A DNA stretch of 64,000 nt from an uncultured delta proteobacterium (GCA_963815145.1 CAWFFS010000027.1:126769-190768); one strand, 5' to 3'. Shown: positions 6,973-23,318, numbered from the stretch's first letter. Notes: generated from the sequence alone by a model not told the origin. A program made the numbers and translations.

Positions 6973-7856
6973 AGTCCTTCGGGGTCGGACCAAGCTAACC
7001 TATTGGAACCAAAAAATATATGTTGAAAATCGCCTCGAACTTAAGGCTTAAATAGCTCTTTTTAGGCATGAAAATGGAGATATAATAAAACATAAACGAA
7101 TAGGGCTTGCCCTGTTAAATGCTGTTTTACAGCCCGCTTCGCGGATTTAACTGTGTAAACCTTGATATCGGGCAAAAAGAGCGAGTTAGGGTATCAAATT
7201 TTTTTTAACTCTTATATGTTCCCGGAATCTTATACATCTTCCTTGATCCACCACTATTTATTTGATAGAAAATAACAACTTATCGAATAAAGAACACAGA
7301 GATCACGTCCCGGTTAAATAAATACTAAATGTGTTTAACTGGATAAATCTTGATATTCGACGGATTCTTAACTTCTGTACCTCTTCGTTTTAGGCAGCAT
7401 CTGTCCTATGTCCGGACCTGATCCCTTTTGACTATGAAACATGATTTAAAGAGATGGAGATTATATAAATTGAAGAAGAAAAGCAGTGAAAGGAGAGAAA
7501 AGGTTTTTTTATTGCATGAAAAAGGTATGACTTTCCGCGAGATCGGTATTCACTTTGGATTTAACCCCGCGAGGGCCAGGCAGATTTATATAAAGGCCAA
7601 GGAGGAAAAGGAGTTGCTTAATCGCAGTCCTTTTTCCTCACACCTTTCAGCACGTTCCCGGAATGCGTTACAACTGTATTTCAATGATGAAAATATAATC
7701 GATGATCCTGACACTGTTGCTAAACTCGGAAGGAAAAAGCTTAGCACTATCAGGAATTTGGGTATTAAGTCTGTTGAAGAAATTTCAAAGATCCTGTATA
7801 AATTGGGTTGTATTAAAGATCCTGATTCTTGGTAGTATATATTTTCCGCCATTTAT
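6973..7856 (+). repeat. 884-bp direct repeat, copy 1 (copy 2 at 22435-23318)
   Basis: Constant offset of 15462 bp; about 8 substitutions counted by eye. Confidence 0.95.
7428..7835 (+). CDS. Small protein: sigma70 region-4-like HTH fused to an RNA polymerase alpha-CTD-like domain
   Basis: HTH GMTFREIGIHFGFNPARARQI; C-terminal LSARSRNAL...LSTIRNLGIKSVEEI..IL..LG matches the alpha-CTD pattern LSxRxxNxL...NLGxKSxxEI. Confidence 0.75.
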   Translation: MTMKHDLKRWRLYKLKKKSSERREKVFLLHEKGMTFREIGIHFGFNPARARQIYIKAKEEKELLNRSPFSSHLSARSRNALQLYFNDENIIDDPDTVAKLGRKKLSTIRNLGIKSVEEISKILYKLGCIKDPDSW

Positions 7857-8734: not shown

Positions 8735-9100
8735 ATGGCAAAGAAAAAGAATTTATCACCAAAATATCAAGTATGGATTGATGCAAGAAAACGGTTTCAT
8801 CTTTCTCATACACATATTCAAATGGCACGGGAAATAGGATTGAATCCAAAGAAATTGGGGAAACTGGCAAACCATAAACAGGAACCTTGGAAATTGCCAC
8901 TTCCGGAATATATTGAAGAATTGTATTTCAAACATTTTAAAAAGGAACCGCCGAAAGACTCATTATCCATAGAGCAACTTGTAAAATTAAAAAAACAAAA
9001 AAATGCGGAAAGAAAAGAACGCAAAAGACAGGAAAAAGATAAAGAAACAATTGAGCAAGTTTCGGCCTCTAATCCTGAATATGATGATATACCTTTTTAA
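8735..9100 (+). CDS. Hypothetical protein (cassette 1)
   Basis: ORF between the putative attI and the attC at 9169. Confidence 0.75.
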   Translation: MAKKKNLSPKYQVWIDARKRFHLSHTHIQMAREIGLNPKKLGKLANHKQEPWKLPLPEYIEELYFKHFKKEPPKDSLSIEQLVKLKKQKNAERKERKRQEKDKETIEQVSASNPEYDDIPF

Positions 9101-9168
9101 GGAAGTTTTTTATTTAAAAACGTGTATTGAAAGTAAGCAGGCAAAAACAAACTAAACAGGTTGGCGGC

Positions 9169-9298
9169 AGCCAACAAGTCACTAAACAAGGACAGGCTGG
9201 TTTTTCTTGCCGAATCGAACCGCAAAGGTTCGCGAAGTTATATAATGCAACAAGCTTCAAAGGTATGCCCCGCCTGCCTGTTAGTGTCGTCGTTGGAT
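9169..9298 (+). other. attC site
   Basis: R'' AGCCAAC ... R' GTTGGAT with cactaa/ttagtg L boxes; 130 bp. Confidence 0.85.
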
Positions 9299-9860
9299 GA
9301 AAGGAATCATAATGCTCGATGCATTTATCAAACTCACTGAAAAAATAATTGAATTGGGCAAGGAGAAGAGTAATAGACGTATTATGTTATTTGAAAAACA
9401 CGCTGAGCCTATGTTTGGTTTATGTAGAGTGGTTCATGATGATTATATTGATGCATTTAAAGAAATTGAAACCTATTTAGTCTCTTCAACATCGGGTATT
9501 AACGAATCATTGGATTTTTTAAAGAAGAGACGAGAAGATTGCTTGAGTGTAAGGCGTGAAATATTTGAATATTGCTATCAGTTAGAACAGCAGCCACCAA
9601 AATGCCTCCTCCCTTTCGTTATAGCATGCCGTGCCCTTTTGAATGCGTCACCGGACTTAGTCGAAGGTGTACGTTGGCATCCTTCAGATTATACATGTTT
9701 AGCCCATAACCTTGAGTTGTTATCAAGAAAAGATGCGCATTTTAGCACTGATGTAAATTATCGCCTCGAGTTACTCAATAGATTCAGATTAGATGTGACC
9801 CAATCTTGGGAAAAAGTAAAAAGTGAATATTTCAAACTTAAAGTGGATTGTTACAAATGA
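9297..9860 (+). CDS. Hypothetical protein (cassette)
   Basis: ORF flanked by attC sites. Confidence 0.75.
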   Translation: MKGIIMLDAFIKLTEKIIELGKEKSNRRIMLFEKHAEPMFGLCRVVHDDYIDAFKEIETYLVSSTSGINESLDFLKKRREDCLSVRREIFEYCYQLEQQPPKCLLPFVIACRALLNASPDLVEGVRWHPSDYTCLAHNLELLSRKDAHFSTDVNYRLELLNRFRLDVTQSWEKVKSEYFKLKVDCYK

Positions 9861-9873
9861 CAATAAAATAAAC

Positions 9874-9959
9874 ATCCAACAAAATGCTACACCAGACCCC
9901 GGAGGGTTCCTTGCTTCATATGAAACCTCACGGCGGGGCTGGTGAGCAATACGTTGTGT
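9874..9959 (+). other. attC site
   Basis: R'' ATCCAAC (complements the preceding GTTGGAT) ... R' GTTGTGT. Confidence 0.9.
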
Positions 9960-9966
9960 GTAGAAT

Positions 9967-10530
9967 ATGATGGAATCCAAAAAAGCTCTTCTAAAATTCA
10001 ATGATGAAGGAATTATTATAGGGCGCCTTTTGGTGGCATATGCTGATTTGGAACTTAGTCTTTTTCACTGTGTAAATGTGACACGAGATGATTTTGATAC
10101 AGTTTATAAGGCAATGTTCAAGGAAAGAGGTGAATCACGACGCATAACTATGGCTGACACCTTTGGAAGACAAAATTATCATACATTAGGGTTTGGCACT
10201 CAGTTTGAAATGGCCATAAGTTCAGTTCGTTTTTGTTTAAAAATAAGAAATCAATATGCACATTGCATTTGGTATGATGATTTTAGTGGAAAATTGGCTT
10301 TTGCAAATTTAGAGGAAGGTACTGAAAGCAATAAAGTTGTAACTGATTTTAAAGAATTGACTATTCGGCATATAGATATTGATACGTTGCATTTGCAGGA
10401 GAAATATTTTGAATATACCGATTCCTTTCTTGCATGGGTGAATTTTGAGGGGCGGCGGGTAGCAGGAAAGCCATCGATGCCTAAACAACAAGCTCCAAAG
10501 CATATCAATCAACCGCCGCTATATGCATGA
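9967..10530 (+). CDS. Putative HEPN-domain protein (cassette)
   Basis: Rx4H motif RNQYAH in a small, apparently helical protein. Confidence 0.6.
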   Translation: MMESKKALLKFNDEGIIIGRLLVAYADLELSLFHCVNVTRDDFDTVYKAMFKERGESRRITMADTFGRQNYHTLGFGTQFEMAISSVRFCLKIRNQYAHCIWYDDFSGKLAFANLEEGTESNKVVTDFKELTIRHIDIDTLHLQEKYFEYTDSFLAWVNFEGRRVAGKPSMPKQQAPKHINQPPLYA

Positions 10531-10534
10531 GAGC

Positions 10535-10591
10535 ACACAACCTGTGCCTTCAGGCGACTCGGTTCCCTCGCGCCTGAGGCTGGCGTTGGCA
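10535..10591 (+). other. attC site
   Basis: R'' ACACAAC ... gccttcaggcg/cgcctgaggc stem ... R' GTTGGCA; 57 bp. Confidence 0.9.
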
Positions 10592-10601
10592 TGGTATAAA
10601 A

Positions 10602-11501
10602 ATGACAGATCTATTTACAGTTTTCATCGTTAAAGGAGTATTAGAGCCGTGGCTATCCTCTTCGGACATGGTGTATAGTTCGATTTTGTCTACACTGAAA
10701 AGTCTTCAACTCTCAGTCCCGTATTGTGTCGAGCTTTATGAATCATTCGATAATTTACCCTTGGGAAACAATCTAAATTGTGATGAAATTCGTGTTGTTA
10801 TTTGTCATATAGACAAGAACGCTGAACAAGAAGTGCTGTCCCGAAGGGATGAGTTCCTTTGGGTACTTGTCTCTGGCGGACAACATGCTGTATCAAAGTC
10901 TTTCCGCAATAAAATGCAACATTGTCATGCCATCTGGTTCCAAGGAGCATACAAGCGGGAAGATAATTTTGCACATTGGATAAGACATTGGACAAAACAA
11001 AATTTTGACATTTCCAATTTTAGTACGAGTGAAGATGCGTTATTCTTTGGTGCATCTGGTCCGATGCTGCATCTGAAAAAATTGCAACAAGACCTGCAAC
11101 CACTTATGATAATTATAGAAAGCTTTAATTCTCTTTGCCATATGGCTGATATGAAAATTGATGCTCCCATGATTAATGAATTATCTATGGGGATTTGTGA
11201 AGTAATCAAAACTCCTGCTATGCTTGACATTATAAGCTCAGAAGCCACACTGCTTGATGGTTGGTTAGCTTCCCAAGAGACCTTAGAACCTGAGCGAGTA
11301 AAGTTGATTAGAAATGCATTATATCCATTGATACCACATGATTATGGACATTTTGAAGTCTATAATCCTAAATTAGACATGGATTTAATCGCCCTCGCCG
11401 AGAACAGGCTAACACATGAAAAGATTTTTGAAGTTGTCGATAAATGGCAAGAACGCTTGGCAGTCCTCTCACAACCAAACAAAGACTTATTCCAGCAGTA
11501 A
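10602..11501 (+). CDS. Hypothetical protein, first gene of a two-gene cassette (possible receiver-like N-terminal domain)
   Basis: 299-aa ORF; VVICH...LWVLVSGG alpha/beta pattern. Confidence 0.7.
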   Translation: MTDLFTVFIVKGVLEPWLSSSDMVYSSILSTLKSLQLSVPYCVELYESFDNLPLGNNLNCDEIRVVICHIDKNAEQEVLSRRDEFLWVLVSGGQHAVSKSFRNKMQHCHAIWFQGAYKREDNFAHWIRHWTKQNFDISNFSTSEDALFFGASGPMLHLKKLQQDLQPLMIIIESFNSLCHMADMKIDAPMINELSMGICEVIKTPAMLDIISSEATLLDGWLASQETLEPERVKLIRNALYPLIPHDYGHFEVYNPKLDMDLIALAENRLTHEKIFEVVDKWQERLAVLSQPNKDLFQQ

Positions 11502-11520
11502 TAAAATGGAGATTGAATAG

Positions 11521-12570
11521 ATGGCTATTTATGAAAACCCTTTTACAACAGACACATCTAGAATCCCAATTAATAGGATTTTAGATCGTTCTGATGAGCT
11601 GAAAAGGATCGAAACAATAACCGTAGCACGTAGTGAAAATATATTACTAACCGGTGAGAATGGCATTGGCAAGACCTGTTTACTTAAAAAGTTCAGGTCG
11701 GCACTTTCAACTCAATATCCAGATGATTGCCTTCTAGTAGAAATTGAAATGCTTGGGATGGCGACGACTCCAGATCGATTTATTTCCGGCTTGTTGCTGA
11801 AGCTTTTTGAGGTTGTTTATACCTCTGTGACCAACAAACCATTTTCATCACTACTTGCATATTCATCTACCGCTCGGGACTTTCCAGTATCGTTAGTGCC
11901 AGCCGTAAAGCACATAATTCAGCTGTTCAGAATGGTCAAGGCTAGAGAGACTTCATCCAATGTCGAAGATAAACATAAAATTGGCGCATCACTTGGCCTT
12001 TCTGCTAACAAAGAGGAAAAACTCGGGAAAAGCTATAAATCTGGGGAATTAAGCCCTACGGAACTTCTTTCAATTTCCTACGAACTTCTTGTGCTACTAA
12101 ATGATAAAGGCTTCTCTAGGGTAATAGTTTTCGGTGACGAGGCAAATCATATTTCTCCAGATATAGAGATTGACTTATATCGTAGTAATTTTGAAGCGTT
12201 CTCTTCACGCAACCTCCAGTTTGTTTTTACGGGTGCTCCAAGATTGTTTGAAAAAATACCGCATTTCCATGAGTTATTTCCTAATGCACTGAAAGTAACG
12301 GGTTTTAAAGACACTGCCGCACTTGATGAGCTTATTGACATTAATTGCAAGGAACTTGCTGAATATGGGATTTCTCTCAACTTTCCTTCTGAAATAAGAA
12401 CGATAATTTGGAATATAACATCTGGAAATCCACAGGAAATTCAAAGGATCTGTCGCACTGTCACTGATATTGCAGTGGAAGAATCTCTGTCAGTTGTTAC
12501 AACCGAGCTTATAATTAAGGGATGTTTGGATGTCTATTCTTTTATCCCAAAGAAACTATCGACATTATGA
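11521..12570 (+). CDS. AAA+/STAND-like P-loop ATPase, second gene of the cassette
   Basis: N-terminal ENPF..ILDR..EL, Walker A GENGIGKT, Walker B VIVFGDEAN, TSGNPQEI. Confidence 0.85.
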   Translation: MAIYENPFTTDTSRIPINRILDRSDELKRIETITVARSENILLTGENGIGKTCLLKKFRSALSTQYPDDCLLVEIEMLGMATTPDRFISGLLLKLFEVVYTSVTNKPFSSLLAYSSTARDFPVSLVPAVKHIIQLFRMVKARETSSNVEDKHKIGASLGLSANKEEKLGKSYKSGELSPTELLSISYELLVLLNDKGFSRVIVFGDEANHISPDIEIDLYRSNFEAFSSRNLQFVFTGAPRLFEKIPHFHELFPNALKVTGFKDTAALDELIDINCKELAEYGISLNFPSEIRTIIWNITSGNPQEIQRICRTVTDIAVEESLSVVTTELIIKGCLDVYSFIPKKLSTL

Positions 12571-12573
12571 TTA

Positions 12574-12644
12574 TGCCAACAACCTACTGCACCTGATCGA
12601 TGTTCCGCTGCGCTCCACACCGACAGGTGAGTAGTGCGTTGGGC
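12574..12644 (+). other. attC site
   Basis: R'' TGCCAAC ... ctactgcacctg/caggtgagtag ... R' GTTGGGC. Confidence 0.92.
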
Positions 12645-12707: not shown

Positions 12708-13901
12708 ATGTCGCACATCATTTCTTTCAAAATTGAAGGTTTGGCTGGACGGAAAGATCCGTTGGAATTGGAATTGAATCGGGACACGAATATCTTCTTT
12801 GGCCCGAATGGAAGCGGCAAAACCTCCCTCCTCAAAATCTTGCATGCGGCCATGGCTAATAATACAGACATATTGGCACGCGTCCCGTTTGTTTCAGCAG
12901 AGGTACACATCTACTCGCTGACTTGGGATAAAGTATTCGTGCGTTCGCTTAAAAAGGCACAAAATATAAAAATTAGCCACTCCAAGGCAAGGAGGGTTGT
13001 TCACAGCGAAGTGCGAATAGGTAAAGATATCGTCCTTGTCGAAGAGCCATATACCGATAAGACGCTTAAATGGTCATGTAGTCCAAAGACTCCTAAAGAG
13101 GCATCCACAACTAGTTGGGCACACGAATATCTATCTACATCGCGACTCCATGTCAGTGACGAACCAATGCCTCCCTTTTTTGAGCCATCGGGTTCCTCAC
13201 GCACTTGGCTAACCGAAGACCAGTTGGATACTTTCTTCGCCCGTTCAGTTGAGAGACTCTGGAATAGATACTCTGCCAAAATCCTTAGCGCTGTACGTGA
13301 AGCTCAAGAGCAAGGCCTTGCAAGTATTTTACGTGCAGTCCTAGCTTCCGAACGCACAAAGGGGAAGCGCAGAAATAGCAAACTCACCAGCGCTACGGCC
13401 TATGAGAGGGTTCATAATTTTTTAAAAAGACAAGGCTCAGCTTCTATTCTTGGATCACGCAAAGACTTTGAAAAGCGGTATGTCGCAGATAACACCTTGC
13501 AGGATGTAGTTCAGGACATTGATGTCGTGGAGAACAAGATTAGGAGTGCCATGAAGTCGCGTGACTCTTTGCAGGAGTTAATTTCCAAAATGTTCATGGC
13601 AAATAAGGAAATCCAATTTTCAGACGAATCCATCGAGGTTAAAACACCATCAGGTGAGAAAATTGGTCTCGCATCGCTTTCATCAGGTGAAAAACATCTG
13701 ATCCGCATACTTGTTCAAGCACTCCTAGTTGGCGAAAGTTCACTTATGATCGATGAGCCAGAGATATCGATGCATGTCGACTGGCAGAAGATCCTTATTG
13801 GATCCATGCGAACACTGAACACCGATGCTCAGTTGATCCTCGCGACTCATTCTCCCGAGATCATGGCTGATGTTGAAGATGACAAGATCTTTCGAATCTA
13901 A
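12708..13901 (+). CDS. ABC/AAA_21-type ATPase (PARIS AriA-like)
   Basis: Walker A GPNGSGKT, signature LSSGE, Walker B LMIDEPE, H-loop ATHS. Confidence 0.88.
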   Translation: MSHIISFKIEGLAGRKDPLELELNRDTNIFFGPNGSGKTSLLKILHAAMANNTDILARVPFVSAEVHIYSLTWDKVFVRSLKKAQNIKISHSKARRVVHSEVRIGKDIVLVEEPYTDKTLKWSCSPKTPKEASTTSWAHEYLSTSRLHVSDEPMPPFFEPSGSSRTWLTEDQLDTFFARSVERLWNRYSAKILSAVREAQEQGLASILRAVLASERTKGKRRNSKLTSATAYERVHNFLKRQGSASILGSRKDFEKRYVADNTLQDVVQDIDVVENKIRSAMKSRDSLQELISKMFMANKEIQFSDESIEVKTPSGEKIGLASLSSGEKHLIRILVQALLVGESSLMIDEPEISMHVDWQKILIGSMRTLNTDAQLILATHSPEIMADVEDDKIFRI

Positions 13902-13913
13902 AAGAAAGGACTT

Positions 13914-14837
13914 ATGATGAACAGACTCCATCACTCATTCTCAGGCCATCTTCGACTAATGCAAATGTCGACAACCCAATTATTCATCTTCGTTGAAGGC
14001 AAACAGTGTGACCCATATTTTTTCGCAAGCATTTGCTCTGCAACATTGGACGATCGTTTGAAATACGAAATTGCCATAGCACGACAACTCCCAGGAGATA
14101 CTGGCGGTAAACAGGCATTAATCTCGTTTTTCGAATTTCTCCGAATGCGAAAATCACTGTTTTCTGACTTAGGTGGCCAAAAAACTACTTGCTTGTTCTT
14201 TCTTGATAAAGATATTGACGATCTTCAACGAAGAAAACTTCGCTCTCGTCATGTTGTCTACACTCAGCACTACGATGTGCAGAACTATATCTTTAAACAC
14301 GGAAATCTTGTAACGGGGACCTCGGCAGCGGCATCGATCGATCCAAGGAGGATCGATCGACAACTGACCGATGCTTCAGAGTGGTGCCGAAAAGCTGCTT
14401 CACTCTGGCGAGATTGGATTGCGCTCTGTCTCAGAATGCTGGAGGATGGAATTCCATGTGAAGCGAACTACAGAGTTTTATCTCCCATACAAACACGTTA
14501 CTGTGGCCCAACAGATATAAATTTACATTTAGAAATCACCCGAAGGTTGGCTCGGCGAAATAGAATTCCCGTTTCTGATCTGAGACGTAGAATTGAATTA
14601 TCAAGAAGGAAAGTAAGCAGGTATTTCGCGAAGGAGGAACATCACCGTATATTCAAAGGCAAGTGGTTTGCAATAATCCTTGCGGACGATGTCGACCGAA
14701 TTATGGCTGGAGACCCATATGACAACAATGGTCTCCCTGGGCGGTTGCCATCTGCGATCGCTGCCACTCTAGACTTTACAGAAGCATGGACGGAATACTT
14801 CAAGCAACCTTTACGAGAAATCAGTATGGAACTTTGA
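13914..14837 (+). CDS. DUF4435/TOPRIM-like nuclease (PARIS AriB-like)
   Basis: FVEG..D, GGK, DKDID, Y.(D/E)NY-like YDVQNY and KGKW motifs; directly downstream of the ABC ATPase. Confidence 0.78.
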   Translation: MMNRLHHSFSGHLRLMQMSTTQLFIFVEGKQCDPYFFASICSATLDDRLKYEIAIARQLPGDTGGKQALISFFEFLRMRKSLFSDLGGQKTTCLFFLDKDIDDLQRRKLRSRHVVYTQHYDVQNYIFKHGNLVTGTSAAASIDPRRIDRQLTDASEWCRKAASLWRDWIALCLRMLEDGIPCEANYRVLSPIQTRYCGPTDINLHLEITRRLARRNRIPVSDLRRRIELSRRKVSRYFAKEEHHRIFKGKWFAIILADDVDRIMAGDPYDNNGLPGRLPSAIAATLDFTEAWTEYFKQPLREISMEL

Positions 14838-15061: not shown

Positions 15062-15571
15062 ATGAAAGGAAGGATAAAAGCAGGCGAAGGAACTTTGGTC
15101 GGTAACGCTGGGGAATTCTATGTTGTGGCAGAGCTTTTAAAACGAGGTGTAATCGCCGCTCTCGCCCCCCGAAATTCGCCAGCGTTCGACATCCTTGCCA
15201 CAAAGGATGAGAAAACGTTTCGTATTCGTGTTAAGACAAAGTCTGAGCAATATGACAATTGGCAATGGGTTGCTAAAAAGGATGGCTCTCTTTTTCGAGA
15301 GCTCTCAGACCATGATGACTTTACTATTCTTGTTAACCTGACAATGGAGACGAAGGATCTCGCCTTTTTTATCGTTCCGACTTCAACTCTCAACAAGTGG
15401 CTGAATGATGATTTTGAAAATTGGAAGGCGACACCTGGGAAAAATGGGCGTCCGCATGATCCGACTAACAAAAAGCGTAATCTCCCATACTCGAAATACG
15501 CCGATAGGCTTAAAAATGAATGGGATATAATGTGGCAGGCACGCCAACCCGGCGTTCAAGCAGAGCGCTAA
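15062..15571 (+). CDS. PD-(D/E)XK nuclease-fold protein
   Basis: GNAGEFYVVAELLKRG...FDILA...IRVKT pattern; the stop lies inside an attC. Confidence 0.7.
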   Translation: MKGRIKAGEGTLVGNAGEFYVVAELLKRGVIAALAPRNSPAFDILATKDEKTFRIRVKTKSEQYDNWQWVAKKDGSLFRELSDHDDFTILVNLTMETKDLAFFIVPTSTLNKWLNDDFENWKATPGKNGRPHDPTNKKRNLPYSKYADRLKNEWDIMWQARQPGVQAER

Positions 15572-15601
15572 CAGCTGCGCCTGCTTAACTTACAGTTCGG
15601 G
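15542..15601 (+). other. attC site
   Basis: R'' CGCCAAC ... gttcaagcag/ctgcttaac ... R' GTTCGGG. Confidence 0.82.
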
Positions 15602-16600: not shown

Positions 16601-17047
16601 ATGAATCGGTCGATATGGTCGCCATCACCAATAAGAAAAGGTACTCTCTTTGGAACTCTAAATTATGAGCTTTCAAGGCTTGACCGAACATATGAGGATA
16701 TTCTTCCTGATTTTAGTGATGCAAAAACTCTATTAATTGGGTCAGATTATAGTGGCGAATCATTTAATGCTCCTTATGTGGTATTTTCTTTTCTTTTAAC
16801 TTCATTGGAATCGTGGGCGAGGTGGGAATCATACCGCCTTCAGATAAGGAAAAAGTTTTTTTCTGATTCACGGCGTATGTCCTTTAAAAAACTTTCAGAT
16901 CGACAACGTAGTCAGGCACTGCCATATTTTTTGGAAGCAGCCAATTCTTTAGATGGCTTATTGATTTCTGTAGCTTTGAACAAAAAATGTAATCCTATTT
17001 TTGATAACAAACCTCCCATTGACTTAAGCAATCCTGATTTTAAAGCG
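16601..17047 (+). pseudogene. Cassette ORF truncated at the RAYT element left end
   Basis: The ORF reads into the terminal repeat at 17048; no 3' half or attC appears on the far side. Confidence 0.7.
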
Positions 17048-18141
17048 GGACGCTCTTCATTATTACAGTTGACAGGCTGGTTGGATAGGAATAAATTGAT
17101 CCAATGTCAAGGACAGCCAGATTAGACGCCCCAGGGGTATTACATCATGTAATGATCCGTGGGATAGAAGGAATGAAAATCTTTCGTAACAATAAAGATC
17201 GTGAAGACTTTATTTGAAAGACTTTTGCAGCTATGTCCTGAGATGAGTATAAAATGCTATGCATGGGCATTTATGTCCAACCATGCCCATTTTCTAATCC
17301 GTACAGGCGAAAACCCATTATCCAGATTTATGAGACGCCTTCTTACTGGTTATGTCATAGGGTTTAATTTCAGACATAAAAGAAGAGGGCAGTTATTTCA
17401 GAACCGGTACAAATCTATAGTATGCCAGGAAGATATATATCTAATTGAACTGGTCCGGTATATTCACCTGAACCCGGTTCGGGCAGGAATTGTTAATACC
17501 CTGGATGAATTGAAGAAATACAAATATTGCGGTCATGGGGCAATAATGAGTGGATTGAAATCTGACTGGCAGGATACAGATTATGTTCTGGGGCATTTTG
17601 GAAAGAATAAAAGAAGAGCCAGAGAAAGAATATGAAACTTTTGTTAAAAAGGGACTAAACCAGGGCCGAAATAATGAGTTGACCGGCGGTGGTCTTATAA
17701 GAAGTCTTGGGGGTTGGACAGAAGCAAAGGAAAAACTAAAAGCCGGCGCTCATATTATGAGCGATGAAAGGATACTCGGAGATTCTGATTTTGTTGATTC
17801 GATGATCACCCAATCTGAAGAAAACTATGAGAGGAGACACAGGTTAAAACAGCAAGGGTATGATCTGGAAGGTATATCGGAAAGGGTTGCTGAAGTATTA
17901 GAAATTGAACTGGATGAAGTGTTTTCCAAGGGGAGGCAGGAGAAGAAAGTAAAGGCAAGAAGTCTACTATGCTATTGGTCATCAAGGGAGTTGGGCATAT
18001 CCCATACCTCACTGGCAAGAAGACTGGAAATGAGTATATCAAATATTGGCTTATCAGTTGAGCGCGGGGAGTTAATAGCCAGGGAAGGTAAATATACACT
18101 TGAAAAGCAAGATTAAGATAATGGAATAATGAAGAGCGTCC
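17048..18141 (+). mobile_element. RAYT/TnpA(Y1) HUH transposase element with perfect 17-bp terminal inverted repeats; CDS 17104-18116 has two frameshifts
   Basis: ggacgctcttcattatt / aataatgaagagcgtcc; RLDAPGVLHHVMIRG, MSNHAH, LFQNRYKS, YIHLNPVRAG; C-terminal HTH. Confidence 0.9.
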
Positions 18142-18159
18142 TTATTTACTATTTATATA

Positions 18160-18841
18160 TAAAGGACGGGTTTACGTTCCTCGGGCAAAGTTTCCGGAAG
18201 CATGGCAGAGTATTGCACATTACGCCATCAAAGGAGGGAGTCCTCGCCCTCAAGCGGAAACTGGGAACCTTAATCCGGAAACACGTCGGAGCACCGATGC
18301 CGGTCCTGATCAAGAAGCTGAATGACGCGCTTCGTGGCTGGGGCAACTACCATAAACATATAGTGGCATCGGACGCATTTGATCATGTTGACAAATATGT
18401 ATATGATCAATTATGGAACATGGTTAAACGCAGACACAGGAAGAAATCCAAAGACTGACTAAAGGAGCATTACTGGTCAGCCGCCGGAAATAAAGGTGTG
18501 TTTGCGGTTAAAGCCAAAAATGAGAAAAACGTCGAAAAGGTGTATAGAGTTTTTCAAGTTTGTTCCATTATAATCAGAAGATACATTAAGATCAAAGCTG
18601 ATGCAAATCCTTACTTGTCAGAGTTTGCTAAGTATTATTATCGCAGAAGACATGATAAGGAAAGTAAGCTGCTTGGTGCCAGGAGTTCAAGAGAATATCT
18701 GGCTCTAAAAGCAGCCTAATGTTAACACAGCCTGGCCGCCCCACAAGGGTTGCCTTTGGGATGCTTGAGCCGTATGACGGGAAACTGTCACGTACGGTTC
18801 TTAGGGGGGAATGGGGTGGTAACACCCCTGACCTACCCGAT
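18160..18841 (+). mobile_element. Group II intron 3' remnant (RT domain 7 and maturase X, with an in-frame stop at 18456; DV/DVI at 18767-18841)
   Basis: DGFTFLG, LRGWGNY, IKADANPY; DV gagccgtatgacgggaaactgtcacgtacggttc; 3' end ...cctacccgat. Confidence 0.9.
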
Positions 18842-19712
18842 CATCAATAGGATTACTCTAGTGGAAAAAGAGAAACAAACAAGTGGAGATTTATGGGCAT
18901 GGTTCCCTGGAGGAAGTCCAGAACGCATAATTTTACAAAAAGCATTTGAGGAATCTAAAAACGACATACAGGCATTAAAGAACTTAGAAAATAAAGTGCT
19001 CGAAAAAGTAAGAGAACTAGAATCTCAGAGGAAATTCGCGTTTGCTGCGGACCTCTATTTGCTTGTCCAGGAAATAAGAGCGTCCTTGGGAATGGATGCC
19101 AGCCTAATAATGTGGGCTAGGGAGTGTGCTGCAGATTCCTTTTCGAAAGCTAAAGAATGGGGCTTAGCCCCTATTTATTACCGCGGTGTTGTTTACAAAT
19201 CTCGCCGCTCTGGTGAATTTGATGATGAACTTATGCTTCAATATTTTAAGCTAAAGTCTGCTGAACGTAATTTCCTTCGGACATCCAAACGCTGGGGGAG
19301 ATGGCTAACATACTGGATTTGGGGTATTACCTCAGGATTCGGCACCTCTTATAAAAGACTTATGTTTACAGTGCTCATGGTTTTGCTTATCTGCGCCCAC
19401 TTATTTTTTCTTGGAACAACATTAACTGGAGGACACTTCATTTCTGGTAAATCTGCTATCACATATTTAGACCATATTTATTTTAGTGTCGTAGTATTTT
19501 CAAGCTTGGGTTTCGGGGACTTATGGCCTGTTCATCCAGTTGCAAAGTTATTAGTAGTGCTGGAAGTGTTACTTGGTTTGGTCATTCTAGGCTTATTCAT
19601 ATCTATTCTTTCTAGAAGAATCACACTCATAGGGACAGTTGACTTAAGCTTAAAAAATCGTTGGAAAGAGGCGCGCAAATTAATGAAGTACAGTAGTAAA
19701 ACTAAGAAATAG
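18842..19712 (+). pseudogene. Potassium-channel (Ion_trans_2-like) domain protein; 5' end lost at the intron junction (cassette)
   Basis: YFSVVVFSSLGFGDLWP pore-loop motif flanked by TM helices; the predicted start at 18750 lies inside the intron. Confidence 0.7.
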
Positions 19713-19774: not shown

Positions 19775-19834
19775 GCCCAACAATTTTTTACAGCGGATCG
19801 CAAAAAACCGCGTCCGCTGAAAAACACGTTGGGC
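19775..19834 (+). other. attC site
   Basis: R'' GCCCAAC ... cagcgga/tccgctg ... R' GTTGGGC. Confidence 0.92.
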
Positions 19835-19884: not shown

Positions 19885-20544
19885 ATGAGCGAAGGTTGGA
19901 TCTACATTGTAAGTACTCTTACATACGCTGAGAAAGATTTCTATAAGATTGGTAGGACGACTCAATCTCCAGAGGTGAGGGCGAAACAACTATCACAAGC
20001 CACGGGCGTTCCAGAGAAATTCATAGTCCATTTTGCCAAGGATGTTTCTGATTGTGAGCTGGCTGAACGAATGATCCATGAAAGGCTAAATTCCTGTCGA
20101 TATAGAGCGGACAGGGAGTTCTTTGCCATTTCATTGGAGAATGCAAAGGCAGTTGTTAACGAGGTGGCGGAAGAAATTGGTGCAGCACTCGCATTCGATG
20201 AAGAAGTGAATTCTCCGAACCTCTCAAAATACTTGAGCCTCAAACATAAAGATAGAAAACCATCAAGTTCCGCCGATGTGTCCAAGTTGGCAGAAAATCT
20301 TCTTTCCAACCATTACACCAAAATCAGGGACTTGGAAAGAATTTTGGAAAGAAGCAGAAGCGCTCTACGCGAATATGAAAAGAAGGCTCGAAAGGGAATA
20401 CTTCTATCTCAAGTAATGGCAACTCGAATCTCTCTGGAGTTGTGCGATGCAGGATTCCACGACCGAATCGGGGAACGATATCCCCTTCACGGTTTAAGAG
20501 TTGTAGACATGCTTGAGCAATTCCGAAAGCTTGTAACGGAGTAA
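19885..20544 (+). CDS. GIY-YIG nuclease, T5orf172-like (cassette)
   Basis: GWIYI...YKIGRT...R...L...TGVP..F...E..IH..L...R...REFF. Confidence 0.85.
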   Translation: MSEGWIYIVSTLTYAEKDFYKIGRTTQSPEVRAKQLSQATGVPEKFIVHFAKDVSDCELAERMIHERLNSCRYRADREFFAISLENAKAVVNEVAEEIGAALAFDEEVNSPNLSKYLSLKHKDRKPSSSADVSKLAENLLSNHYTKIRDLERILERSRSALREYEKKARKGILLSQVMATRISLELCDAGFHDRIGERYPLHGLRVVDMLEQFRKLVTE

Positions 20545-22434: not shown

Positions 22435-23318
22435 AGTCCTTCGAGGTCGGACCAAGCTAACCTATTGGAACCAAAAAATATATGTTGAAAATCGCCTCGA
22501 ACTTAAGGCTTAAATAGCTCTTTTTAGGCATGAAAATGGAGATATAATAAAACATAAACGAATAGGGCTTGCCCTGTTAAATGCTGTTTTACAGCCCGCT
22601 TCGCGGATTTAACTATGTAAACCTTGATATCGGGCAAAAAGAGCGAGTTAGGGTATCAAATTTTTTTTAACTCTTATATGTTCCCGGAATCTTATACATC
22701 TTCCTTGATCCACCACTATTTATTTGATAGAAAATAACAACTTATCGAATAAAGAACACAGAGATCACGTCCCGGTTAAATAAATACTAAATGTGTTTAA
22801 CTGGATAAATCTTGATATTCGACGGATTCTTAACTTCTGTACCTCTTCGTTTTAGGCAGCATCTGTCCTATGTCCGGACCTGATCCCTTTTGACTATGAA
22901 ACATGATTTAAAGAGATGGAGATTATATAAATTGAAGAAGAAAAGCAGTGAAAGGAGAGAAAAGGTTTTTTTATTGCGTGAAAAAGGTATGACTTTCCGC
23001 GAGATCGGTATTCACTTTGGATTTAACCCCGCGAGGGCCAGGCAGATTTATATAAAAGCTAAGGAGGAAAAGGAGTTGCTTAATCGCAGTCCTTTTTCCT
23101 CACACCTTTCAGCACGTTCCCGGAATGCGTTACAACTGTATTTCAATGATGAAAATATAATTGATGATCCTGACACTGTTGCTAAACTCGGAAGGAAAAA
23201 GCTTAGCACTATCAGGAATATGGGTATTAAGTCTGTTGAAGAGATTTCAAAGATCCTGTATAAATTGGGTTGTATTAAAGATCCTGATTCTTGGTAGTAT
23301 ATATTTTCCGCCATTTAT
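22435..23318 (+). repeat. 884-bp direct repeat, copy 2
   Basis: Near-identical to 6973-7856. Confidence 0.95.
22890..23297 (+). CDS. Second copy of the HTH + alpha-CTD-like protein
   Basis: Differs from 7428-7835 by 2 aa (H>R, L>M). Confidence 0.75.
   Translation: MTMKHDLKRWRLYKLKKKSSERREKVFLLREKGMTFREIGIHFGFNPARARQIYIKAKEEKELLNRSPFSSHLSARSRNALQLYFNDENIIDDPDTVAKLGRKKLSTIRNMGIKSVEEISKILYKLGCIKDPDSW

Follow-up and report, generated by a model that had tools for sequence, protein, structure and literature searches.

A rare two-gene integron cassette pairs a STAND-like ATPase with a predicted receiver fold that carries histidine at the putative acceptor position

Positions 10,602 to 12,570 of the window, a 64,000-nucleotide stretch of DNA from an uncultured delta proteobacterium (GCA_963815145.1 CAWFFS010000027.1:126769-190768), hold two genes, and the question that they raise is what a protein of no recognised family and the ATPase encoded beside it might do together. 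A sequence-only reading had described the genes as a single mobile cassette, had offered them as a candidate new ATPase-gated defence module, and had named a Foldseek search and the co-occurrence of homologs as checks on that proposal.

Both genes lie on the plus strand and are separated by 19 nt (Table 1), and the start codon of ORF1 is backed by a homolog of 80% identity. The R' core GTTGGCA at 10585 first meets its exact complement, TGCCAAC, at 12574, downstream of both genes, and the attC scan, a method that yields false positives elsewhere, gave no candidate site between them. The closing attC folds into a long bottom-strand hairpin (z -3.67; one of 200 shuffles was equally good). The upstream site, when folded freely, does no better than its shuffles (z -0.10); it forms a single hairpin of -9.2 kcal/mol once the AAC/GTT pairing is forced, its R'' is the exact complement of the R' of the preceding cassette, and it is matched on other metagenome contigs, where its flanks are unrelated. 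Exact R'/R'' pairing is also seen in both preceding cassettes. Complementary cores, a bottom-strand hairpin and genes uninterrupted by an attC are the marks of an integron gene cassette, weak here only in the freely folded upstream site, and they bear out the earlier claim that the two ORFs move as one. The G+C content of the cassette is 38.5%, against 43.5% for its contig, and scans for promoters and terminators stayed at chance level.

Table 1. Features of the two-gene cassette, in positions of the window.
Feature	Coordinates	Strand	Remarks
Upstream attC, end of preceding cassette	10535..10591	+	R' GTTGGCA, 10585-10591, opens the two-gene cassette
ORF1 (P0001), 299 aa	10602..11501	+	Predicted His-pseudo-receiver and helical bundle; unassigned in the family libraries
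Predicted receiver-like five-stranded alpha/beta domain, residues 4-134	10611..11003	+	VIA-align match 3eqz
His69 codon	10806..10808	+	Invariant His ending strand 3; putative position of the receiver phospho-acceptor Asp
Predicted four-helix bundle, residues 147-299	11040..11498	+	Variable part of the family
GGAG Shine-Dalgarno of ORF2	11508..11511	+	Inside the 19-nt gap
ORF2 (P0002), 349 aa	11521..12570	+	Predicted stand-alone Cdc6/TnsC/STAND-like P-loop NTPase, lid helices only
Walker A (G45-T52), GENGIGKT	11653..11676	+	G45, G50, K51, T52 in 17/17 homologs
Low-confidence segment, probably beta-hairpin, residues 143-174	11947..12042	+	pLDDT <50; inside Walker A-B insert
Walker B (F204-E207), VFGDE, then invariant ANH	12130..12141	+	17/17
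GxP lid motif (G302-Q305)	12424..12435	+	G302, P304 17/17; R305 16/17
Closing attC	12574..12644	+	R'' TGCCAAC to R' GTTGGGC

Both matches above the cut-off to the integron integrase model TIGR02249 fall on contig C8 and none on C27, the contig of the window, so that the attC cluster of the window has no adjacent integrase and does not amount to a complete integron. Contig C8 holds two full integron integrases (166279-167220 and 266811-267752), and fragments were seen on C1 and C11.

Homologs were found for each protein: clustering at 50% gave 18 representatives for ORF1, and ORF2 yielded 18 matches with E no higher than 1e-10. The alignment of the ATPases, used for scanning, picked up 50 metagenome and 35 genome loci, 20 of which exceed 60 bits with the family profile, and at 18 of these the partner profile matches the gene directly upstream. 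At a further locus, L010, this place is taken by the C-terminal part of a long-form partner (51.5 bits), which raises the count to 19 of 20; the exception, L009, has an ISL3 transposase within the 5' end of its ATPase gene. Merging six duplicate pairs (five of them 99.9-100% identical, one 92%) leaves the partner upstream at 13 of 14 distinct loci, and none of 65 control loci, which bear a Walker A fragment only, gave a partner match. The homologs thus co-occur, as the earlier reading had proposed should be checked. Wherever the genes are paired the partner stands first and the ATPase second, and each of four whole genomes has one partner copy, beside the ATPase. Frameshifts, which may be assembly errors or decay, are present in the partner gene of L015/L016, at 4115-5010 of L053 and at the 3' end of the L008 ATPase gene.

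Across ten pairs, the identities among partners and among ATPases are strongly correlated (Mantel r 0.888; reached in 0 of 9999 permutations), which shows co-inheritance, not contact. The partner diverges faster, at 14-43% identity against 29-56% for the ATPase. At L001/L002 and at L003 the pair is likewise a single attC cassette with matching cores of its own, which makes three independent lineages together with the window. The named hosts of homologous pairs are two Acidobacteriota MAGs and one Verrucomicrobia MAG, and in two samples of 401 genomes each the only true match came from the centre genome. A second match among 401 genomes of the same phylum was rejected as a false positive, arising from a coiled-coil stretch of a gene that we take to be RecN-like. 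Plasmid and phage sequences gave no match, and viral contigs only Walker A fragments. The pair is a real, rare and co-inherited two-gene module.

What kind of ATPase is ORF2? STAND NTPases are recognised by a Walker A motif, a Walker B motif with two acidic residues, a sensor-1 Thr, a GxP helical motif, an AAA+ fold of the Cdc6/Orc clade and the lack of a canonical arginine finger. In the 17 ATPase homologs aligned, G45, K51, T52, D206, E207, the sensor-1 residue T237, G302 and P304 are all invariant, as are an N-terminal DR motif and the sequence FGDEANH, and none of the 17 has an arginine finger, the column aligned to the Arg of the TnsC LHGRF motif being Ala in 11 and Leu in 6. The window protein has Gln at position 305, where 16 of the 17 have Arg, and shares this Gln with P0041, to which it is 91% identical. 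Pfam assigns ORF2 to AAA_22 (E 4.2e-9), with weak matches to KAP, ATPase_2 and NACHT; nSTAND3, nSTAND5 and nSTAND1 match four, three and one of the 17 members, respectively (best E 5.5e-6), and PADLOC models match at Walker A only.

The structural comparison points the same way. With the ORF2 model (pLDDT 81), Foldseek placed Cdc6/Orc1 2qby on top (E 7.1e-9), in agreement with the STAND-like assignment made earlier, and the archaeal Walker-type ATPase 2qen and TnsC were also present; in a profile search against the PDB, the nearest solved relative was TnsC (E 8e-7). No winged helix, fused sensor or fused effector was found in ORF2, whose chain ends 11 residues past the last lid helix, and the 18 matches of the homolog search, which was confined to lengths of 191-611 aa, fall between 281 and 359 aa. 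The description of ORF2 as a Walker A/B ATPase devoid of an effector domain accordingly stands. About 120 residues separate Walker A from Walker B and comprise helices and the disordered, probably hairpin-forming segment; the insert of Cdc6 and TnsC at the corresponding place contacts DNA. A role for this hairpin as a membrane pore was rejected, since its flanks are charged, its hydrophobic tip is short and its acidic residues are invariant on both strands, so that it is unlikely to span a membrane. ORF2 is therefore predicted to be a Cdc6/TnsC/STAND-like ATPase with the motifs of a STAND switch, but lacking the winged-helix and fused domains.

The fold of ORF1 was approached through a model built from four sequences (pLDDT 71.8, pTM 0.60). 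Among the 48,161 chains searched with VIA-align, the best match was the receiver 3eqz (Z 10.0, rmsd 2.6, 113 residues aligned), and most of the best 50 matches were receivers. The VVICH and VLVSGG segments, in which a receiver-like domain had been suspected, form strands 3 and 4 of this predicted receiver fold. Sequence profiles gave no comparable signal: when the ORF1 profile was set against 113 receivers that the same genome encodes, hhalign gave a probability of 0.4, a score equalled by 3 of 40 shuffles, and Pfam Response_reg matched none of 19 partner proteins. As the profile comparison is not significant, the receiver assignment is a structural one. Foldseek with the ORF1 model returned nothing at E 0.001, and a profile search of the PDB nothing below E 0.16.

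Nor did the domain libraries place the protein. No family in Pfam, PADLOC or NCBIfam was matched by ORF1; Pfam found no receiver, kinase or effector family in 18 partner homologs, and at 1e-5 PADLOC gave no match for 12 partner homologs, five ATPase homologs or the ORF1 of the window. The Atlas matches, to DNA polymerase III delta, stayed below 0.8 and arose from the whole protein only, with none for residues 1-140; this identity was dropped, since the structural search favoured receivers. A TIR or nucleoside-deoxyribosyltransferase identity was likewise rejected: neither occurs among the best 50 structural matches, an absence that is not decisive, and the Glu conserved in the partner family comes after strand 5, whereas the motif Glu of TIR and nucleoside-deoxyribosyltransferase domains is expected after strand 3.

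Conservation in the partner family was counted in a 29-row alignment, by the rows that cover each column. His69 is present in all 26 such rows, and Asp occurs neither in its column nor in the preceding one. Position 91 is Ser in 24 and Thr in 2 of 26 rows, as at the end of receiver strand 4, while Trp17 (22/22), Trp126 and Trp130 (28/28 each), Tyr117 (27/28) and Arg/Lys119 (26/28) complete a pattern that can be written W17, H69, S91-G92 and Y117-x-R-E-x-x-F-x-x-W. Other receiver hallmarks have been lost: of the acidic pair after strand 1, Asp remains in only 3 of 21 rows at position 10 and 8 of 21 at position 11, and in place of the Lys-Pro after strand 5 there is no Lys at 114-115 and no Pro at 116. 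On a register taken from the secondary structure of the model and the receiver consensus, we infer that His69 would occupy the place of the acceptor Asp. ORF1 is thus predicted to combine a receiver fold, devoid of the receiver Asp and Lys, with a four-helix bundle.

The part of the partner that follows the receiver-like domain differs in length among the homologs: the 162-aa protein of L013 lacks it, the window type has about 150 aa, and in four long forms it reaches about 350 aa. The receiver-only partner of L013 (3495-3983) lies in an integrase/resolvase/ArdC element near tRNA-Met, and this minimal form is found in one lineage only, L013/L014. As this lineage keeps the receiver-like domain alone, the essential function would reside in that domain and the bundle is likely regulatory. 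In the four long forms, a helix matches the HisKA H-box, its His aligned with that of the box (hhalign probability 92%, E 6e-7, 29 columns); none of 50 column shuffles did as well and the reversed alignment reached 0.9%, although the match, which is to a single helix in four sequences, falls below Pfam reporting. None of the four long forms contains a GHKL/HATPase domain. For the window-type bundle no significant match to the H-box, HisKA or HPt was obtained, and an HPt or HisKA identity was dropped on the strength of that profile comparison; homology between the short and long C-termini was rejected likewise, the comparison of their profiles not being significant. The invariant His at the putative acceptor site and the H-box-bearing long partners go beyond what the earlier reading had described.

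Comparison with known systems begins with the Cdc6/Orc-proximal STAND NTPases (2qen, Cdc6/Orc1, TnsC, and the Avs/NLR-like defence proteins), which share with the window ATPase their fold, the DR motif, Walker A/B, GxP and the absence of an arginine finger. Unlike them, the window ATPase lacks a winged helix, a repeat sensor and a fused effector, and has instead a long hairpin insert and a fixed partner in trans. PARIS, Septu, Gabija and RADAR similarly pair an ATPase gene tightly with one partner on mobile DNA; however, the ATPase described here is not of ABC type and matches PADLOC only at Walker A, and its partner is not recognised as any nuclease or deaminase. A TnsC/TniB system would have an adjacent DDE transposase with TniQ and an arginine finger, none of which was found here.

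Systems that contain receivers offer a second comparison. Detocs, a defence system, is built from two-component parts, namely the DtcA kinase, the DtcB receiver and the DtcC receiver-PNP, and needs both the kinase His and the receiver Asp (bioRxiv 10.1101/2023.01.24.525353). The present module, probably an anti-phage operon as well, has such parts in its predicted receiver fold and in the H-box of the long forms, but differs in having two genes, with a P-loop ATPase in place of a GHKL kinase and no acceptor Asp, PNP, nuclease or membrane effector; its neighbours include no HisKA/HATPase gene, and 13 partner proteins gave no PADLOC match. Receivers that occur apart from a histidine kinase and are proposed to handle nucleotides have been described as cREC (PMC7824862) and in ternary systems (PMC8195603), and the CoCoNuT protein CnuA also carries a receiver (PMC11090510). 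cREC keeps its catalytic aspartates and is linked to NAD+/RNA-repair genes (PMC7824862), whereas the partner here has His for Asp, a STAND-like ATPase beside it and no Pfam match; linkage of the cREC type was not found among the neighbours scanned, the SIR2 gene present at one locus belonging to a different cassette. The pair was not described in the full-text literature searched, a corpus that did not include Nicastro et al. 2023 (NAR 51:11479) or the supplements of the STAND survey, which could list the family. As had been stated earlier from the DNA, the pair is matched by no named system, ORF1 finding no counterpart in Pfam, PADLOC or NCBIfam and ORF2 being met by PADLOC at Walker A alone; it would be of the NTPase-switch conflict type, with an unusual His pseudo-receiver.

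The neighbourhoods of the homologous pairs were scanned through 45 of 85 ORFs with Pfam and 15 of these 45 with PADLOC; the selection omitted the paired genes and probable shadow frames, and one ORF was added by hand. Of nine distinct flanked loci, four adjoin defence genes: SIR2-HerA at L002, a type II RM system at L004, BrxF/BrxC at L006 and a DrmMI-type methyltransferase at L053. Three more, L003, L013 and L051, lie in mobile DNA, whether in an array of attC sites, in an integrase/ArdC element or beside a terminase, and two, L011 and L052, have ordinary neighbours in neither a defence nor a mobile context. At L002, the SIR2-HerA pair forms one attC cassette (178-2966) directly before the homologous pair. 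No conserved third gene was found at any locus examined, and no recognisable toxic domain in ORF1 or ORF2 by Pfam, PADLOC or NCBIfam.

How far does this context speak for defence? A STAND survey took 0.0153 as the probability of finding a non-defence gene no more than 5 kb from a defence system (bioRxiv 10.64898/2026.01.04.697583). Four of nine is far above this value, but the defence calls made here are single-gene matches and mobile cargo is enriched generally; since all integron or island cargo lies near defence genes, the context does not single out the ORF1-ORF2 pair. Among sedentary-integron cassettes 16 of 88 were anti-phage, as were at least a third of the mobile-integron cassettes tested, according to a review (PMC13434031). 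From the integron cassettes and the SIR2-HerA, RM, BREX and DISARM-type neighbours we infer a defence role for the pair. The proposal of a candidate new ATPase-gated defence module thus holds insofar as no named system matches, while its defensive character is suggested by context and gating by the ATPase is presumed.

The reading that we favour, tentatively and as possible rather than probable, is that the module defends against phage or other invading DNA through an ATPase switch and a partner with a His pocket. In this view the ATPase would be a nucleotide-dependent switch, forming oligomers in response to a cue from the invader. The long Walker A-B insert, which corresponds in position to the DNA-contacting part of Cdc6 and TnsC, may sense this cue. 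Once activated, it would turn on the partner, perhaps by contact with the conserved beta5-alpha5 face, where R119 is a candidate arginine finger supplied in trans. The W17/H69/S91 pocket of the partner would then bind or cleave a phosphate-bearing metabolite, under regulation by the variable bundle, and the resulting output would arrest the infected cell. It has been proposed that kinase-independent receivers in conflict systems are switches responsive to nucleotides, and STANDs are held to descend from ATPases of the Cdc6/Orc kind (PMC8195603).

It is unlikely, if still worth weighing, that the roles are reversed, with an ATPase that is toxic when free, by coating DNA or draining ATP, and a pseudo-receiver that serves as its inhibitor and sensor in a toxin-antitoxin-like abortive or addiction cassette. 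Antitoxins and sensors are usually first in order, fast-evolving and variable, as are the partner gene and its C-terminus; TnsC and Cdc6, to which the ATPase is similar, coat DNA, and in L015/L016 and L053 the partner gene has a frameshift where the ATPase start is open. A c-di-GMP-binding pseudo-receiver sensor is known as well (PMC7010744). Yet a broken antitoxin next to an intact toxin would kill, so these frameshifts are either assembly errors or count against such an arrangement, and the absence of an arginine finger from all 17 homologs suggests that hydrolysis by the ATPase alone is slow, a poor basis for draining ATP. We also doubt that the pair serves no defence at all and is a regulatory or mobile-element helper, such as a stress-signalling pair or a TnsC-like targeting ATPase with its adaptor, carried by integrons for another benefit. 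The nearest solved relative by sequence is indeed a transposon regulator, L011 and L052 have ordinary neighbours, and defence and non-defence STAND clades are interspersed (bioRxiv 10.64898/2026.01.04.697583). However, no locus bears a TnsB/TniQ-type gene, a DNA-binding output domain or a conserved third gene, and the distribution is patchy and rare, to the point that the centre genome alone was matched in both genome samples.

Quite improbable, though it would have the largest chemical novelty, is a His phosphorelay that dispenses with a kinase, in which the P-loop ATPase passes its gamma-phosphate to His69 and, in the long forms, onward to the H-box His, replacing both the GHKL kinase and the Asp. 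The invariant His at the putative acceptor position, the strand-4 Ser/Thr retained in 26 of 26 rows, the H-box match in partners that have no HATPase, and the absence of HisKA or HATPase from the 45 neighbour ORFs scanned would all suit such a relay. Against it, the metal-binding acidic pair and the phosphoryl-stabilising Lys of receivers are lost, the Walker B Glu never varies, as would be expected of a hydrolase, and the H-box match concerns one helix in four sequences and has no equivalent, nor any HisKA or HPt match, in the short form of the window. We know of no AAA+ protein kinase. Were the relay true, it would be a new phosphotransfer chemistry in bacterial immunity, with a STAND-like ATPase in the place of a histidine kinase.

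Under the favoured defence reading, the pair would be a candidate immune module, as yet unnamed and reduced to two genes, whose STAND-like ATPase is not fused to sensor or effector. With neither a fused effector nor a known toxic domain, the module must have an output that is new or cryptic. The presence of His for Asp in a receiver fold tied to an ATPase and not to a kinase allows a direct test of the proposal that kinase-independent receivers are nucleotide switches or enzymes, and the cassette is suited to it, being 2 kb long and self-contained, with clear residues to mutate. The reach of the module is limited by its rarity.

The surrounding window holds further cassettes and elements. Ahead of the pair, 8735-10530 (+) comprises three single-gene cassettes (121, 187 and 187 aa) with no Pfam match, two of which have exact R'/R'' complements. 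The cassette that follows the pair (12708-14837, +) encodes an ABC-type ATPase (AAA_21; PADLOC AriA, E 3.8e-36) and a 307-aa partner of no family whose FVEGK motif we take to be TOPRIM-like, and is PARIS-like. Beyond it lie a 169-aa protein (15062-15571, +) that matches PD-(D/E)XK weakly (E 0.003) and ends at a candidate attC site (15542-15601); a 320-aa protein (18750-19712, +) that contains an Ion_trans_2 domain and weakly matches Hailong HalA (E 1.5e-4); and, directly after the attC at 19775-19834, a T5orf172 protein (19885-20544, +; PADLOC PDC-S57, E 1.1e-21). At 17041-18148, inverted repeats of 27 nt flank two ORFs, presumably a split Y1-type transposase, followed by a fragment that to us resembles a group II intron reverse transcriptase. 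The attC cluster is bracketed by near-identical direct repeats (6973-7835 and 22435-23297; at least 300 nt, 99%) that lie 15,462 bases apart, and after each of them comes an HTH gene of 135 aa, almost identical in the two places.
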